Source of the DNA: a virus
Lineage: Duplodnaviria > Heunggongvirae > Uroviricota > Caudoviricetes
Length of the DNA: 21,846 nucleotides
IMG/VR virus record: IMGVR_UViG_2778261514_000003
Reading direction: 5' to 3' (one strand)
In this document: piece by piece, positions 1 through 5,490 of the stretch
How positions within the stretch are numbered: position 1 is the stretch's first letter
How the letters are laid out: each line of letters begins with the position of its first letter
Made by a program: the position numbers and the translations under genes
Notes under the pieces: model-generated
The model's database searches: none
What the model was told of the DNA's origin: nothing
The model's input: the letters and a program-made list of their open reading frames with translations, nothing else

Positions 1-63
1 CGAACCTGTATTTCAAAATTAAAGAAGACCGGCGTAAGGCGGCGCGGGGAGAGTAGACGATGA
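1..63 (+). CDS. Possible 3' end of an upstream gene truncated by the window start; basic C-terminal tail (...KTGVRRRGESRR)
   Basis: Frame 1 is open from base 1 to a TGA at 61-63, which overlaps the ATG at 60-62 of the next ORF (ATGA overlap, suggesting translational coupling). Only 20 codons are visible, so identity is unknown; a holin C-terminus is one possibility given the position upstream of the endolysin. Confidence 0.2.
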   Translation, partial: RTCISKLKKTGVRRRGESRR

Positions 64-569
64 ATAAACAATACGAACTGGTTGTTAAAGGGATAAATAA
101 TTACCCGGATAAGATTACTGTTACTGTAGCGCTGGAAACGGGTGGGTATACGTCACTGTTGTTGCCAAATGTGGTGATTGATCTTGATCGTGTTGAAGGT
201 GCCCCGCTGGAGTTTTACGAAGCTGAGGCGAAAAAGAAGGCGAAGCAGTTTTTCATGGATATTGCTGCCGGGTTATGTGAAGGGGATGAACAGTCACAGG
301 AAAAGTGCCTTTGTTCCGAAGATCGGTATACCATACAAATTAACAATGCATATAACACGATACTGTCAGAAAAAGATGATATCGAATCACGCATTGAAAA
401 ACTGGAGAATTGCGTTGTTGAACTGAATAAAAAACTGTCGACGCTGATGCCTTCTGAAGATGCAAAAAAACGCCGCGATGAGCAGTTCGCGGCGTTTTAC
501 GATTATTGCATTGAAGTTACTCGCAGGAATTTTGTGAAGGCTTTTGAGGAGAGTAAATCTCTTCAGTAA
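60..569 (+). CDS. Hypothetical protein, 169 aa, Lys/Glu-rich with predicted coiled-coil C-terminal half; function unknown (moron)
   Basis: Complete ORF with GGGAGA Shine-Dalgarno-like sequence about 7 nt upstream of the ATG. Visibly more AT-rich than the structural genes, by eye roughly 40% GC. No recognisable similarity to lambda proteins. Confidence 0.65.
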   Translation: MNKQYELVVKGINNYPDKITVTVALETGGYTSLLLPNVVIDLDRVEGAPLEFYEAEAKKKAKQFFMDIAAGLCEGDEQSQEKCLCSEDRYTIQINNAYNTILSEKDDIESRIEKLENCVVELNKKLSTLMPSEDAKKRRDEQFAAFYDYCIEVTRRNFVKAFEESKSLQ

Positions 570-779
570 GCTTAATGGCGGACGCTGCAATTAATTCAGG
601 AAGGTCCGCAAGGTCATCTGTCAGTGGGAATGATGAAAAATCGGCGGCAGTTCTGTTAAGAATTGCTTTAACTAATTCCTTTTCCTCATCCGGCAACACG
701 TTGATTAGAGCTACGACTGCTTGCCTGAGTGCGATTAAATCAGCAAAAGTTTGTTTTGGTAGATTTGGATAATCCATAG
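517..779 (-). CDS. Hypothetical small acidic protein, about 87 aa (MDYPNLPKQTFADLIALRQ...SQNSCE); function unknown
   Basis: Minus-strand ORF with start ATG at 777-779 (reverse complement) preceded by a GAGGTG ribosome-binding site. Protein is acidic (about 14 D/E versus 7 K/R). Its 3' end overlaps the 3' end of ORF 60-569 by 53 nt. The longer 161-aa version in the ORF track has no ribosome-binding site and would overlap the endolysin start. Confidence 0.45.
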
Positions 780-888
780 TCACCTCTGTGTTTATCAGAT
801 TGACATACCCTGGCCAGTGCCCACCACTGGCGGGGTGAAGGCTTAACATATCCAGGGATTCGGAACCGATAAATCCTGATAAATATCC

Positions 889-1422
889 ATGAACGCAAAA
901 ATCAAATACGGCCTGTCGGCTGTCGTTCTGGCGCTGATTGCCGCAGGGGCTTCTGCGCCTGAAATCCTCGACCAGTTTCTGGATGAAAAGGAAGGTAACC
1001 ACACCACGGCATACCGTGATGGTGCGGGTATCTGGACCATCTGCCGTGGAGCCACCCGGGTGGATGGTAAGCCTGTGATTCCTGGCATGAAGCTGTCGAA
1101 GGAAAAATGCGACCGGGTTAACGCTATCGAACGGGATAAGGCGCTGGCATGGGTGGCGAAAAACATCAGAGTGCCACTGACCGAACCTCAGAAAGCGGGT
1201 ATTGCGTCATTCTGCCCGTATAACATTGGCCCCGGTAAGTGTTTCCCGTCGACGTTTTATAAACGAATTAATGCAGGCGATCGCAGAGGAGCGTGTGAAG
1301 CGATTCGCTGGTGGATTAAGGACGGTGGCAGAGACTGCCGTATCCGCTCAAATAATTGCTACGGTCAGGTATCTCGTCGCGACCAGGAGAGTGCGCTGGC
1401 GTGCTGGGGTATCGACAGATAA
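889..1422 (+). CDS. R: Endolysin, SAR-type phage lysozyme (T4-lysozyme-like fold, N-terminal signal-arrest-release domain)
   Basis: 177 aa. N-terminal Gly/Ala-rich weakly hydrophobic segment (YGLSAVVLALIAAGASA) typical of SAR domains, followed by a lysozyme catalytic region (E...D...T within EGNHTTAYRDGAGIWTICRGAT). Position immediately upstream of Rz/Rz1. Confidence 0.88.
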   Translation: MNAKIKYGLSAVVLALIAAGASAPEILDQFLDEKEGNHTTAYRDGAGIWTICRGATRVDGKPVIPGMKLSKEKCDRVNAIERDKALAWVAKNIRVPLTEPQKAGIASFCPYNIGPGKCFPSTFYKRINAGDRRGACEAIRWWIKDGGRDCRIRSNNCYGQVSRRDQESALACWGIDR

Positions 1423-1516
1423 GCAGAATATTTTGCTGAAAAATGCGGTTTGCTCACACGGACGGATAACACGAAATCCTGCGAACTGACAAAAACTAAG
1501 TGAATAAAAGTAAAAA

Positions 1517-1550
1517 CCCCGTTTGTTGGCTGCAAGCGGGGTTTTGTGTT
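1517..1550 (+). terminator. Rho-independent terminator-like hairpin downstream of the endolysin
   Basis: 9-bp GC-rich stem (CCCCGTTTG / CAAGCGGGG, one G-U wobble) with 7-nt loop, followed by TTTTGTGTTT. An A-tract lies upstream, so it may act bidirectionally. Confidence 0.55.
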
Positions 1551-1578
1551 TCTGACCTTGGATAAGGCAAGGGAGAAC

Positions 1579-1761
1579 ATGGAAAAGTATAAACGAATTC
1601 TGTTGAGGTTGACTATGAAAAACGGCCTTGAACTGAAAGCGCCTGTAACTGATGACATCAGCAGAGCACTGGCTTTTGCCATTAAGTGGGTGGCGGTCGG
1701 TGTTGCTGTGTCCCCGATGCTGTATGGGCTGGCAAAACTGGTCATTGCGTTGAAATCGTGA
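1579..1761 (+). CDS. Small hypothetical protein, 60 aa, with a hydrophobic C-terminal segment (possible single transmembrane helix)
   Basis: ATG at 1579 preceded by AAGGGAG ribosome-binding site. The ORF-track start at 1546 is a GTG inside the terminator T-tract and is less likely. Hydrophobic stretch [28 protein letters not shown]. Confidence 0.4.
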
Positions 1762-1775
1762 AGGGAGGATTAAGC

Positions 1776-1907
1776 ATGTCAGACAAACTCATAACGCTGG
1801 CGAAGATCCTCTGTGTAATTGTCGGCATTTCATTTTCACTAATGCTGGTTGCTCTTTTTCTTTCCATGGCCTGGATGATGTTGTCTTCGTCGGGGCTGCT
1901 GGGGTGA
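1776..1907 (+). CDS. Small hydrophobic membrane protein, 43 aa ([43 protein letters not shown]); possible lysis-associated membrane protein
   Basis: ATG at 1776 preceded by a strong AAGGGAGGA ribosome-binding site. Its stop TGA (1905-1907) overlaps the GTG start of Rz at 1904 (GTGA), suggesting translational coupling. One or two predicted transmembrane helices. Confidence 0.4.
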
Positions 1908-2377
1908 ACATAAACCGAATGCTTTCCGCGTTTATCGTTATTCTGCTGGTGGCCTGTGGAGCGCTGTGGATGGCAACAGACCATTACCGTGATAACGCGA
2001 TTACCTACAAAGCGCAGCGCGATAACAAAGCCAGTGAACTGAAGCTGGCGAACGCAACCATTACTGATATGCAGGTGCGCCAGCGCGATGTTGCTGCGCT
2101 CGATGCAAAATACTCGAGGGAATTAGCCGATGCGAGAGCTGAAAATGAAACTCTTCGCGCTGACGTTGCCGCTGGTCGTAAGCGCCTGCGGATCAACGCC
2201 ACCTGTCCAGGCTCCGTGCGTGAAGCCCCCACCACCTCCGGCGTGGATAATGCAACCGGCCCCCGACTGGCAGACACCGTTACACGGGATTATTTCACCC
2301 TCAGAGAGCGGCTGATGACGATGCAGAAGCAACTGGAAGGGGCGCAGGAATATATCCGTACTCAGTGCATTAAGTAG
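1904..2377 (+). CDS. Rz: Rz i-spanin (inner-membrane spanin subunit)
   Basis: Translated ORF aligns along its length with lambda Rz as I recall it (shared ...[14 protein letters not shown]...[23 protein letters not shown]...VAAGR.RL...[17 protein letters not shown]). N-terminal transmembrane helix. Start may be GTG 1904 or ATG 1919. Confidence 0.9.
2130..2315 (+). CDS. Rz1: Rz1 o-spanin (outer-membrane lipoprotein), embedded in the +1 frame of Rz
   Basis: Fully embedded in Rz in a different frame. Lipoprotein signal with lipobox (LPLVVSAC), Pro-rich mature region ([22 protein letters not shown]) matching lambda Rz1 as recalled. Confidence 0.85.
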
Positions 2378-2400
2378 TCTTTTTATTATCCGGAGGATGT

Positions 2401-2625
2401 ATGAAGAAATTACTGGTAACCGTAAAGCCTTTTCAGGGAACAATTCCGTTCCGTATTTTGCAGCGTGGTCGTGTTCTTGTTGAAGGTTCGTTCAGTGGTA
2501 AATGTACGCAATTACACTCCCGGACCTTTCAGGTGAATGCCACGAATGAAGAGCTAACCGTTGAGTGTACGATGAATGCCGCTAAATGCCGCATGGTATC
2601 CGCTGCATTACAGCCAGTGTGTTGA
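2401..2625 (+). CDS. Hypothetical protein, 74 aa, with 4 Cys (C35, C56, C63, C74); function unknown (moron between spanins and cos)
   Basis: ATG preceded by GGAGGATG ribosome-binding site. Occupies the slot where lambda carries bor on the opposite strand, but is on the + strand and unrelated to Bor by inspection. Confidence 0.5.
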   Translation: MKKLLVTVKPFQGTIPFRILQRGRVLVEGSFSGKCTQLHSRTFQVNATNEELTVECTMNAAKCRMVSAALQPVC

Positions 2626-2885
2626 GCGACCTTATTATCCATGGCGCGGTATTGTCGCCGTATTCCCGTATTAACAGAGACCGCAGCCCGACAGGGAGAC
2701 TCCTCTGCGCGAGTGTGCGGGGATAATCAAAAACGATACACACCGGGGTTTACCGCGTTAACGGAGCGCGGCGTTGTCCCCTCATGGTAGCTGGTCCGGT
2801 GCGATGGTGGAAGAAACTGGATTTTGTTGCAACTGACAATCATTATCATTTTGCCGGGTCCTTTCCGGCGATCCGGGCCGTTACG

Positions 2886-2897
2886 GGGCGGCGACCT
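2886..2897. other. cosN cohesive-end site (12-nt GGGCGGCGACCT), with lambda-like flanking sequence including the cosQ region upstream
   Basis: Exact GGGCGGCGACCT followed by TCGCGGATTTTCACTATTTATGAAAATTTTCCGG, near-identical to the lambda genome left end as I recall it. Upstream GGGTCCTTTCCGGCGATCCGGGCCGTTACG resembles the lambda right end. Confidence 0.85.
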
Positions 2898-2934
2898 CGC
2901 GGATTTTCACTATTTATGAAAATTTTCCGGGATC

Positions 2935-3033
2935 CATGTCCGGTTTCTCTGCAAGTTAACCATATGAAAAATATAAAAACATGCTTTCCATGAACCGGAC
3001 ATGCGCAAAAAATAGACACTAAAACCGGACATG
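2935..3033. repeat. cosB-like region with three copies of an 11-bp motif AACCGGACATG (one inverted, two direct); candidate terminase small-subunit binding sites
   Basis: Exact copies at 2935-2945 (reverse orientation, CATGTCCGGTT), 2993-3003 and 3023-3033, lying between cosN and the Nu1 start, with an A/T-rich segment between the first and second. The arrangement mirrors lambda R3-I1-R2-R1 but the repeat sequence differs from lambda R sites. Confidence 0.6.
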
Positions 3034-3080
3034 ACCGGTTTTGTTGTGATTGTGAGGTGAGAGTTTTTGCGAGGTGAGGA

Positions 3081-3590
3081 GTGGCTACGCAGACTGAAGT
3101 TGCCAGGCATTTAAGTCTGACCGATCGCCAGCTTCGCAGATTGCAGAAATTGCCGGGTGCCCCGATATCGAATAAGCGAGGGCAACTGGATCTGGATGCC
3201 TGGCGCGATTTTTACATATCGTATCTGAGAAGAAGTAAAAACGATGTGCCTGATGGCGATAGCGAAGACGACTATGAGGAGAAATTGCTTATTGCCAGAT
3301 GGGAACTGACAGCAGAACAGGCTGTTACACAGCAGTTAAAAAATGAGGTGTCAAAAGGAAAACTTATTGACACCGGGTTCTGTATTTTTGCCCTCAGCAA
3401 GCTGGCAATGGCGTTATCCAGTACGCTTGATTCCATCCCTTTATCCATGCAGCGACAGTTTCCTGATTTAACACCGCGCCATCTTGACCATCTGAAAACC
3501 CTTATTGCGAAGGGGGCAAATCAGTGTGCGCGGGCGGGGGATAAATTACCGGATTTACTCGATGAATATATCAGAGCAACAACTGAATAA
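3081..3590 (+). CDS. nu1: Terminase small subunit (Nu1-like); C-terminal half lambda-like, N-terminal DNA-binding region divergent
   Basis: GTG start after GAGG ribosome-binding site. C-terminal region (...TGFCIFALSKLAMALSSTLDSIPLSMQRQFPDLTPRHLDHLKTLI...LLDEYI) matches lambda Nu1 as recalled. N-terminus (MATQTEVARHLSLTDRQLRRLQK) is a different helix-turn-helix-like segment. 3' end overlaps the A start. Confidence 0.85.
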   Translation: MATQTEVARHLSLTDRQLRRLQKLPGAPISNKRGQLDLDAWRDFYISYLRRSKNDVPDGDSEDDYEEKLLIARWELTAEQAVTQQLKNEVSKGKLIDTGFCIFALSKLAMALSSTLDSIPLSMQRQFPDLTPRHLDHLKTLIAKGANQCARAGDKLPDLLDEYIRATTE

Positions 3591-5490
3591 TATGATGAGT
3601 GCTGTCACAACAGCATTACAGCCCCTGATAAGGGCATTGCCGGTGACGCCAGTTGAATGGGCTGATCAAAATTATTATCTGCCTAAAGAATCTTCATATG
3701 GTGAGGGAGAATGGAAAACGCTGCCGTTCCAGATCGCCATCATGAACAGCATGGGGAATGATCAGATCCGGACTGTTAATCTGATTAAATCTGCCCGTGT
3801 TGGCTATACAAAGATGTTGCTGGGAGTCGCCGGGTATTTTATTGAGCATAAATCCCGAAACAGTCTGCTTTTTCAGCCCACGGATTCTGCCGCTGAAGAT
3901 TTTATGAAGTCTCACGTGGAGGCGACGATTCGCGATGTTCCCTGCCTGAAAAAACTTTCTCCCTGGCTGGGACGTAAACATCGTGATAATACCATCACGC
4001 TGAAACGCTTTTCATCGGGTGTGGGCTTCTGGTGCCTGGGCGGCGCTGCCGCCAAAAACTACCGTGAAAAATCCGTGGACGTGGTCTGCTATGACGAACT
4101 TTCCTCGTTCGAGCCGGATGTCGAAAAAGAGGGCTCGCCAACCCTGCTGGGGGATAAGCGTATTGAGGGCTCGGTATGGCCAAAATCCATTCGCGGCTCG
4201 ACGCCTAAAATAAAAGGCTCCTGCCAGATCGAAAAAGCGGCCAACGAGTCGGCGCATTTCATGCGTTTTTATGTGCCCTGCCCGCACTGTGGGGAGGCGC
4301 AGTATCTGAAATTTGGCGATGAGTCCACGCCTTTTGGCCTTAAATGGGAGAAGGACAGCCCCGAAAGCGTTTTCTACCTCTGTGAACATCATGGCTGCGT
4401 GATCCATCAGTCTGAGCTTGACCAGAGCAACGGGCGGTGGATCTGTGAAAACACGGGGATGTGGACCCGCGACGGTCTGACGTTTTTCAGCGCCGCGGAT
4501 AATGAAATTCCGCCGCCGCGCTCCATCACATTCCATATCTGGACGGCGTACAGTCCCTTCACCACCTGGGTACAGATTGTCTATGACTGGCTGGATGCAC
4601 TGAAAGATCCCAACGGCCTGAAAACCTTTGTGAACACCACGCTGGGCGAGACCTGGGAAGAGGCCGTGGGCGAAAAACTCGATCACCAGGTGCTGATGGA
4701 TAAGGTTGTGCGTTACACGGCTGCGGTGCCTTCCCGGGTGGTTTATCTGACGGCGGGCATTGACTCGCAGCGAAACCGTTTTGAGATGTATGTCTGGGGA
4801 TGGGCTCCGGGAGAGGAAGCCTTTCTGGTGGATAAAATCATCATTATGGGGCGTCCCGATGAGGAAGAGACGCTGTTACGTGTGGATGTGGCGATCAACA
4901 AAAAATACCGCCATGCAGACGGAACCGAAATGACCATTTCCCGTGTCTGCTGGGACACCGGGGGGATCGATGGCGAAATTGTCTATCAGAGGTCAAAAAA
5001 ACACGGTGTTTTCCGGGTGCTGCCGGTAAAAGGTGCATCTGTTTATGGCAAGCCGGTGATCACCATGCCAAAAACCCGCAATCAGCGGGGCGTGTATCTG
5101 TGCGAAGTGGGGACGGACACCGCAAAAGAAATTCTCTATGCCCGTATGAAAGCCGATCCCACGCCTGCGGATGAAGCCACGTCGTATGCCATCCGTTTTC
5201 CTGATGATCCGGAGATTTTTTCGCAGACAGAGGCGCAGCAACTGGTGGCGGAAGAGCTTGTGGAGAAGTGGGAAAAAGGAAAGATGCGTCTGCTGTGGGA
5301 TAACAAAAAGCGGCGTAACGAAGCGCTGGACTGCCTGGTGTATGCCTACGCGGCATTACGTGTGTCCGTGCAACGCTGGCAACTTGATCTGGCTGTACTG
5401 GCAAAATCCCGGGAAGAAGAGACGACCCGGCCAACCCTTAAAGAACTGGCAGCGAAGCTGTCCGGAGGAGTGAATGGTTACAGTCGCTGA
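3562..5490 (+). CDS. A: Terminase large subunit (gpA-like: ATPase / cos endonuclease)
   Basis: Strong colinear similarity to lambda gpA from MNISEQQ...VEWADQNYYLPKESSYGEGEWKTLPFQ onward. Start chosen at ATG 3562 rather than the upstream in-frame extension in the ORF track. Confidence 0.95.
   Translation: MNISEQQLNNMMSAVTTALQPLIRALPVTPVEWADQNYYLPKESSYGEGEWKTLPFQIAIMNSMGNDQIRTVNLIKSARVGYTKMLLGVAGYFIEHKSRNSLLFQPTDSAAEDFMKSHVEATIRDVPCLKKLSPWLGRKHRDNTITLKRFSSGVGFWCLGGAAAKNYREKSVDVVCYDELSSFEPDVEKEGSPTLLGDKRIEGSVWPKSIRGSTPKIKGSCQIEKAANESAHFMRFYVPCPHCGEAQYLKFGDESTPFGLKWEKDSPESVFYLCEHHGCVIHQSELDQSNGRWICENTGMWTRDGLTFFSAADNEIPPPRSITFHIWTAYSPFTTWVQIVYDWLDALKDPNGLKTFVNTTLGETWEEAVGEKLDHQVLMDKVVRYTAAVPSRVVYLTAGIDSQRNRFEMYVWGWAPGEEAFLVDKIIIMGRPDEEETLLRVDVAINKKYRHADGTEMTISRVCWDTGGIDGEIVYQRSKKHGVFRVLPVKGASVYGKPVITMPKTRNQRGVYLCEVGTDTAKEILYARMKADPTPADEATSYAIRFPDDPEIFSQTEAQQLVAEELVEKWEKGKMRLLWDNKKRRNEALDCLVYAYAALRVSVQRWQLDLAVLAKSREEETTRPTLKELAAKLSGGVNGYSR

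Follow-up and report, generated by a model that had tools for sequence, protein, structure and literature searches.

We analysed a 21,846-nucleotide (nt) stretch of DNA from a virus of the class Caudoviricetes (IMG/VR record IMGVR_UViG_2778261514_000003), referred to here as the window. Between the spanin genes Rz/Rz1 and cos it carries a 74-codon open reading frame (ORF), and we found that this ORF is a real gene, widespread but optional, that is under purifying selection. It encodes a protein of 74 amino acids (aa), MKKLLVTVKPFQGTIPFRILQRGRVLVEGSFSGKCTQLHSRTFQVNATNEELTVECTMNAAKCRMVSAALQPVC. An earlier note on this DNA had pointed to the ORF in this slot, which in lambda holds bor, and had taken it for cargo that could serve host interaction or virulence. 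Its location was borne out by the Pfam matches of the neighbouring genes and by the match to cos, and its status as cargo by prophages in which the site is empty. We are highly confident in this anatomy, by which we mean a real, selected and optional gene with its late-strand position, predicted fold and distribution. Taking anatomy and role together, the reading we prefer is that the product serves as an accessory factor, made late, which in lytic growth would bind and neutralise an anti-phage factor of the host or of a prophage, or another host factor. We hold this composite reading tentatively, as one that may well be wrong.

Conservation and distribution of the gene

The reading frame is conserved among relatives, a point on which the earlier note had made its proposal depend. 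From about 165 related loci that were fetched, we collected 168 copies representing 52 nucleotide alleles, and the frame was open in all of them; one identical protein was encoded by nine different nucleotide alleles. Pairwise comparison of diverged alleles by the Nei-Gojobori method gave ratios of non-synonymous to synonymous substitution rates (dN/dS) of 0.27-0.41 in the frame of the gene, whereas the other two frames of the same pairs gave ratios of roughly 1 or above (0.84-2.10). The corresponding ratio of polymorphisms within the clade (pN/pS) was 0.24-0.44. An indel of five codons in the diverged relatives leaves the frame intact. Because the frame is open across alleles, dN/dS is low in this frame only and the indel preserves the frame, we conclude that the ORF is more than a product of chance.

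Two allele classes stood out from this background. Class A (the type found in the window) and class B (the type of relative P0015) are separated by 12-16 non-synonymous and 2-3 synonymous changes, which are small counts, against a background ratio of about 0.3. Between the window gene and its counterpart in locus L008 (4001-4225), for example, there are 16 non-synonymous and 2 synonymous changes (dN/dS 2.6), compared with 0.3-0.4 elsewhere in the family. This excess may reflect a burst of rapid protein change, or it may be a recombination artefact.

This very common gene has an entry in existing catalogues, and no source gives it a named function. The identical protein is deposited in RefSeq as a 'hypothetical protein' (WP_000735655.1; UniRef A0A0D6ZJZ6) and occurs on at least 1,000 contigs. 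A megablast search with the region returned full-length matches in about 1,180 of 5,426 complete Escherichia coli genomes, roughly a fifth. The gene was also found by tblastn in 28 deposited phages, mostly those converting for Shiga toxin (Stx) types Stx1a, Stx2a and Stx2c together with H-19B, and is often unannotated there. The survey of related prophages that the earlier note had proposed therefore placed the gene in many E. coli genomes and, as described below, in other Enterobacterales, and it also turned up sites from which the gene is absent. Two E. coli prophages (L166 and L167) with a near-identical Rz lack the gene, and one of them also has the same Nu1-type small terminase and cos. 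At both empty sites the stop codon of Rz is followed by about 10 nt and then by a conserved block that starts at window position 2645. These junctions mark positions 2378-2644 as a clean presence/absence cassette. Provided that the empty-site prophages are viable, the gene is probably dispensable for the core functions of the phage. Of the classical, Hendrix-type hallmarks of a moron, we observed presence and absence between collinear genomes and a deviant base composition (G+C of 0.43-0.48 for the gene versus 0.58 for Rz), but not a promoter and terminator of its own.

Expression, protein family and predicted fold

The gene lies on the late strand and starts 23 nt after the stop codon of Rz. 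Across 85 distinct contexts, 63 place it within 27 nt of the long ORF upstream and the remainder show a larger gap. The gap was 22-27 nt in 45 contexts, and in 18 of the 85 the gene and Rz share a 4-nt ATGA overlap, with Rz reading on for eight further codons. The strong ribosome-binding site described in the earlier note is present as GGAGGA three bases before the ATG, and its GGAG core is kept in the leader upstream of almost all alleles. A consensus scan, a simple one that weak promoters could escape, detected no promoter-like site on the plus strand in 800-3300; from the ORF to cos it detected no terminator-like site either. A terminator-like hairpin inside the ORF (2437-2452) was judged incidental, as its stem has 5 bp and chance gives 2.3 such matches. 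In lambda, the late transcript runs from the late promoter under Q through the lysis genes, across cos and into the packaging genes. Because the gene is on the late strand, adjacent to Rz and without flanking promoter-like or terminator-like sites, we infer that it is expressed with the lysis genes in lytic growth, by Q-dependent read-through, and not in the lysogen.

A search with hidden Markov models assigned the protein to PHROG 2571 (E 2.8e-28, 99.9 bits, residues 1-73), and the distant relatives in L011 and L014 likewise matched this family. Scans of the protein against Pfam (even at E<=10), NCBIfam and PADLOC gave no match. A word-indexed search returned 66 relatives down to 56% identity, the named ones all from E. 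coli or Salmonella. An exhaustive profile search returned 48 representatives, including proteins of 72-82 aa at 25-40% identity. The hosts of the relatives in a second profile search were Salmonella, Citrobacter, Enterobacter, Cedecea and Yersinia, and the proteins are 'hypothetical' in every source. We found nothing on the gene in the literature when looking it up by accession, PHROG identifier and DUF1327. The positions conserved across the wider family are V6, F17, Q21, G33, K34, Y43, V45 and A68. The four cysteines counted in the earlier note are present (residues 35, 56, 62 and 74) but are not a family trait, since none is kept across the wider family and the E. coli/Salmonella clade keeps C35 and C56 only; the cysteine content is therefore incidental. 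Net charge, as read from the alignment, varies from about +6 in the window allele to about 0 in others.

The domain is modular. Its fusion partners differ among P0068, P0073 (169 aa), P0074 (280 aa) and P0077 (225 aa), and the PHROG 2571 profile (291 positions) was itself built around P0074, of which the domain forms the middle third. Scans of these four relatives (Pfam, NCBIfam and PADLOC for all, PDB for P0073 and P0074) gave no informative partner domain, the sole exceptions being the C-terminal module of a DUF1327 protein in P0068 and sub-threshold Phage_Tail_Tip matches. P0068 (181 aa; L017 5001-5546), whose gene lies between Q and holin, combines an N-terminal domain like the 74-aa protein with the C-terminal module found in the DUF1327-containing protein of the window (60-569). 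The two kinds of N-terminal domain are thus interchangeable on one C-terminal module. Kinship between the 74-aa domain and the DUF1327 N-terminal domain was rejected (hhalign probability 0.7%). Two giant adhesins, P0080 and P0081, were set aside as relatives; they are immunoglobulin (Ig)-repeat proteins in which many weak repeat matches had been summed. A viral contig (L131) carries two tandem paralogues, a 68-aa form after Rz (4001-4207) and, a few hundred bases downstream, a 280-aa form with the domain (about 4870-5433).

The genes around the family vary among related prophages. Three unrelated types of small terminase were found downstream, namely Nu1, DUF1441 and Terminase_2 preceded by an HNH gene. 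The cargo between the family member and the terminase gene comprised a TonB_C-domain protein, DUF3950, phrog_4280, KilA-N, a 149-aa ORF and DUF4406. Distant members stay between the lysis and packaging modules even with an unrelated lysis cassette (GH19 endolysin, other holins), and the presence of the family is independent of both packaging type and lysis type. A gene of the Acb2/Tad1-hairpin family lies directly after distant members, on the late strand and just before Nu1, in L011 (5314-5598), L012 (3316-3600) and L019 (863-1147). By Pfam it belongs to a family of sponges acting against CBASS (cyclic-oligonucleotide-based antiphage signalling system) and Thoeris, and the three contigs are metagenomic or run-assembly contigs. 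A free-standing protein with a TonB C-terminal domain (about 110 aa; for example L008 4557-4898) was a frequent occupant of the slot between Rz and terminase in many loci. The phrog_4280 protein (67-68 aa; L003 4265-4471, L014 5308-5511) directly follows the family member in Salmonella (L003) and Citrobacter-type (L014-L016) prophages, which suggests a two-gene cassette in these prophages. The phrog_4280 gene is absent from the window.

The product is predicted to be a small, soluble 8-kDa beta-sandwich. An AlphaFold2 model based on an alignment of 23 sequences had a mean predicted local distance difference test (pLDDT) score of 90.2 and a predicted template modelling score of 0.76, and was all-beta. 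Besides one short helix it has six strands at least three residues long, and one strand of its core is formed by the N-terminal residues 2-8 (pLDDT 93). The N-terminus, MKKLLVTVKPFQG, has no hydrophobic h-region and no L-x-x-C lipobox, and the first cysteine is residue 35. An N-terminus that is an integral strand and lacks these elements argues against a cleaved signal peptide and export, in agreement with the earlier note, which had seen neither a signal peptide nor similarity to Bor; a cytoplasmic location is likely. The homology search that the note had proposed gave a family by profile but no specific structural match. Foldseek of the model against PDB and BFVD returned nothing at E<=0.001, and its neighbours were generic beta-sandwiches only. 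The nearest folds were small sugar-binding modules and lectins (CBM6/35/36, LecB), the C-terminal domains of PNGase F and hemocyanin, and the Ig-like domains of lambda J. A sequence-profile search of PDB gave chance-level alpha-crystallin matches only (E at least 0.11). The protein was rejected as a J tail-tip domain, as no profile similarity to a J domain was detected, including that of the J protein of the window. The modelled fold, which shows no catalytic motif, suggests a binding module rather than an enzyme and does not pinpoint a ligand.

Candidate roles of the protein

In the reading that we prefer, the gene would be an optional cassette of one gene, attached behind the lysis genes in lambdoid prophages, without a promoter or terminator of its own. 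It would be transcribed as part of the Q-dependent late transcript that passes from S-R-Rz through cos into the packaging genes, and translated from its own strong ribosome-binding site or, in other prophages, by coupling to Rz through the ATGA overlap. Because the predicted protein is a seven-stranded beta-sandwich without a catalytic motif, this soluble cytoplasmic product would most likely act by binding another macromolecule. Binding would then neutralise an anti-phage factor encoded by the host or a prophage, or a host factor, during lytic growth. This last step is speculative. It is suggested by the accessory genes that collect at the junction, including the Acb2/Tad1-like gene, by the modularity of the domain, by the divergence between classes A and B and by the precedent of atiEcA in phi80. 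Taken on its own, a role in counter-defence or host interaction seems to us rather doubtful.

In phi80, the interval between Rz and cos carries taiEcA (orf63), an opposite-strand gene that the lysogen expresses and that keeps other phages from assembling their tails; its target was mapped genetically to the C-terminus of J (PMC11364771). The adjoining gene on the late strand, atiEcA (orf64), encodes 76 aa and shields the phage from its own Tai (PMC11364771; He et al. 2024). Its dependence on Q was inferred by the authors with orf6 as a proxy, and direct binding between Tai and Ati was demonstrated for the Salmonella pair TaiSalB/AtiSalB (PMC11364771). The 74-aa gene resembles atiEcA in its slot (after Rz and before cos and packaging), its strand and its length. 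Moreover, AtiEcA is not needed by phages without a cognate Tai, and atiEcA can be transferred into phage HK106. However, the two proteins have no detectable sequence or profile similarity, and no divergent tai gene adjoins the 74-aa gene in the window. A comparison with hhalign led us to reject homology of the family to AtiEcA (probability 0.3%, E 0.2). When the window and related loci were searched for AtiEcA by tblastn, no match fell below E 2.7, and no TaiEcA homologue was found in the same sequences, where kinship of the neighbouring genes with TaiEcA was also rejected. Membership of the gene in the Tai/Ati system thus fails, while the mode of action of AtiEcA may serve as a reasonable model by analogy. 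A bolder version is that PHROG 2571 is a new class of late counter-defence proteins, free-standing beta-sandwiches that neutralise an immune protein of the host or a rival prophage acting on late steps such as tail assembly. We think this version unlikely. Such a protein might be a decoy for a tail-tip domain, analogous to AtiEcA of phi80 although unrelated in sequence.

The protein could instead be an accessory of lysis, made in step with Rz and tuning the function of spanins, endolysin or holin, or the timing of lysis, from the cytoplasmic side. The coupling to Rz is consistent with this. However, the gene is probably dispensable and is missing from prophages with a near-identical Rz, and distant members of its family either follow unrelated lysis cassettes, have a divergent gene between themselves and the lysis genes, or are placed between Q and holin. 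Spanins work through parts that are in the periplasm, whereas the 74-aa protein has no export signal, and a match to XepA was non-specific. These observations make a lysis accessory an improbable explanation.

The earlier note had favoured cargo for lysogenic conversion, host interaction or virulence, expressed from the prophage and analogous to bor. Lambda Bor is a secreted lipoprotein of lysogenic conversion, encoded on the opposite strand and expressed in the lysogen from its own promoter. Like bor (PF06291), the 74-aa gene is optional cargo between Rz/Rz1 and cos; it also has a lower G+C content than Rz and is common in prophages of Shiga-toxin-producing E. coli (STEC) and in Stx phages. 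The analogy breaks down on architecture, as the gene is on the late-operon strand, close behind Rz or overlapping it, and the scan detected neither promoter-like nor terminator-like sites beside it. A signal peptide and a lipobox are both missing from its product, which matches no Pfam family, PF06291 included, and is modelled as soluble and cytoplasmic. Non-STEC E. coli and other Enterobacterales have the gene just as often. In the window, the ORF list and Pfam show no gene on the opposite strand of the interval (2378-3080), and hence no bor. No pointer to a virulence or surface role was found. We therefore give cargo of this kind very little weight, and conclude that the protein is not a lysogenic-conversion, Bor-like surface or virulence factor.

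A prophage factor for defence or exclusion, directed against other phages or satellites, for example by disturbing the assembly of a competitor, is also very unlikely. Tai-like immune genes of lambdoid phages lie predominantly upstream of the packaging module, at sites termed moron loci (PMC11364771), and the nearby cargo in relatives includes TonB_C-domain, KilA-N and DUF3950 genes. However, prophages normally express their defence genes during lysogeny, and these often lie on the opposite strand like taiEcA, whereas the 74-aa gene is on the late strand and PADLOC gave no match. Finally, an accessory of DNA packaging at cos, like the HNH protein of HK97-like phages, is highly implausible: the gene is always upstream of a small terminase gene, but that gene comes from three unrelated families and its distance varies, with as much as 2-3 kb of other cargo between, net charge is not conserved, and a prophage with the same cos and Nu1 lacks the gene.

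Surrounding features and biological meaning

The features of the region are collected in Table 1. The remainder of the window holds lambda-like head and tail genes, and an Rfam scan of positions 1-5000 gave no match near the gathering score.

Table 1 Location of the 74-aa gene and of the features around it in the window.
Feature	Position	Strand	Remarks
86-aa gene	517-777	-	between DUF1327 gene and lysozyme; no Pfam match
Phage lysozyme	889-1422		Pfam
Terminator-like hairpin	1513-1545		directly 3' of lysozyme gene; 14-bp stem, then T run
60-aa ORF	1579-1761		RefSeq hypothetical WP_021566721.1
43-aa ORF	1776-1907		RefSeq hypothetical WP_001280932.1
Rz (i-spanin)	1904..2377	+	PF03245, E 1.4e-48; proposed same transcription unit as the 74-aa gene; stop 23 nt before it
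Rz1 (o-spanin lipoprotein)	2130..2315	+	PF06085; embedded in Rz
Optional cassette	2378..2644	+	intergenic leader, ORF and about 19 nt of trailer; missing where Rz stop abuts cos-proximal block
Shine-Dalgarno GGAGGA	2392..2397	+	three bases 5' of ATG
74-aa protein gene	2401..2625	+	ATG start; PHROG 2571 member; identical to WP_000735655.1
Non-coding block	2645-2760		just 5' of cos
cosN GGGCGGCGACCT	2886..2897	+	single occurrence; end of Rz-cos slot; identical to the lambda cohesive end
Nu1-type small terminase subunit	3081..3590	+	PF07471; first packaging gene

Several of these features were observed in their own right. The hairpin behind the lysozyme gene is a strong terminator-like structure. 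The 60-aa and 43-aa ORFs, which are small and hydrophobic, unusually interrupt the S-R-Rz cassette between endolysin and Rz, and were present in about half of the related loci. The 86-aa gene interrupts the late operon on the opposite strand, a layout that constitutes a 'non-contiguous operon' as with taiEcA in phi80, and the corresponding place in other prophages is taken by other opposite-strand genes (133 and 210 aa). As a partner of the 74-aa gene it was rejected, with co-occurrence in 4 of 76 loci.

More than 3,000 E. coli genomes, with or without the 74-aa gene, have kept the non-coding block just 5' of cos. The block is annotated as a 'hypothetical protein' in some phage records (Kati, ev099). 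Its candidate frame is broken between relatives by a 1-nt indel, and its RNA fold was no better than that of shuffled sequences (z 0.13). The block may be a DNA element associated with cos.

The 74-aa gene is carried by about one complete E. coli genome in five and also by inducible Shiga-toxin phages. It should not be taken for a bor-like virulence determinant of STEC prophages. If the gene proves to have no phenotype, it would be one more optional small phage gene. In phi80, the junction between lysis and packaging genes was recently found to harbour an immunity gene paired with an anti-immunity gene, and if a role in counter-defence or host interaction is true, PHROG 2571 would add another family to the cargo of this junction.
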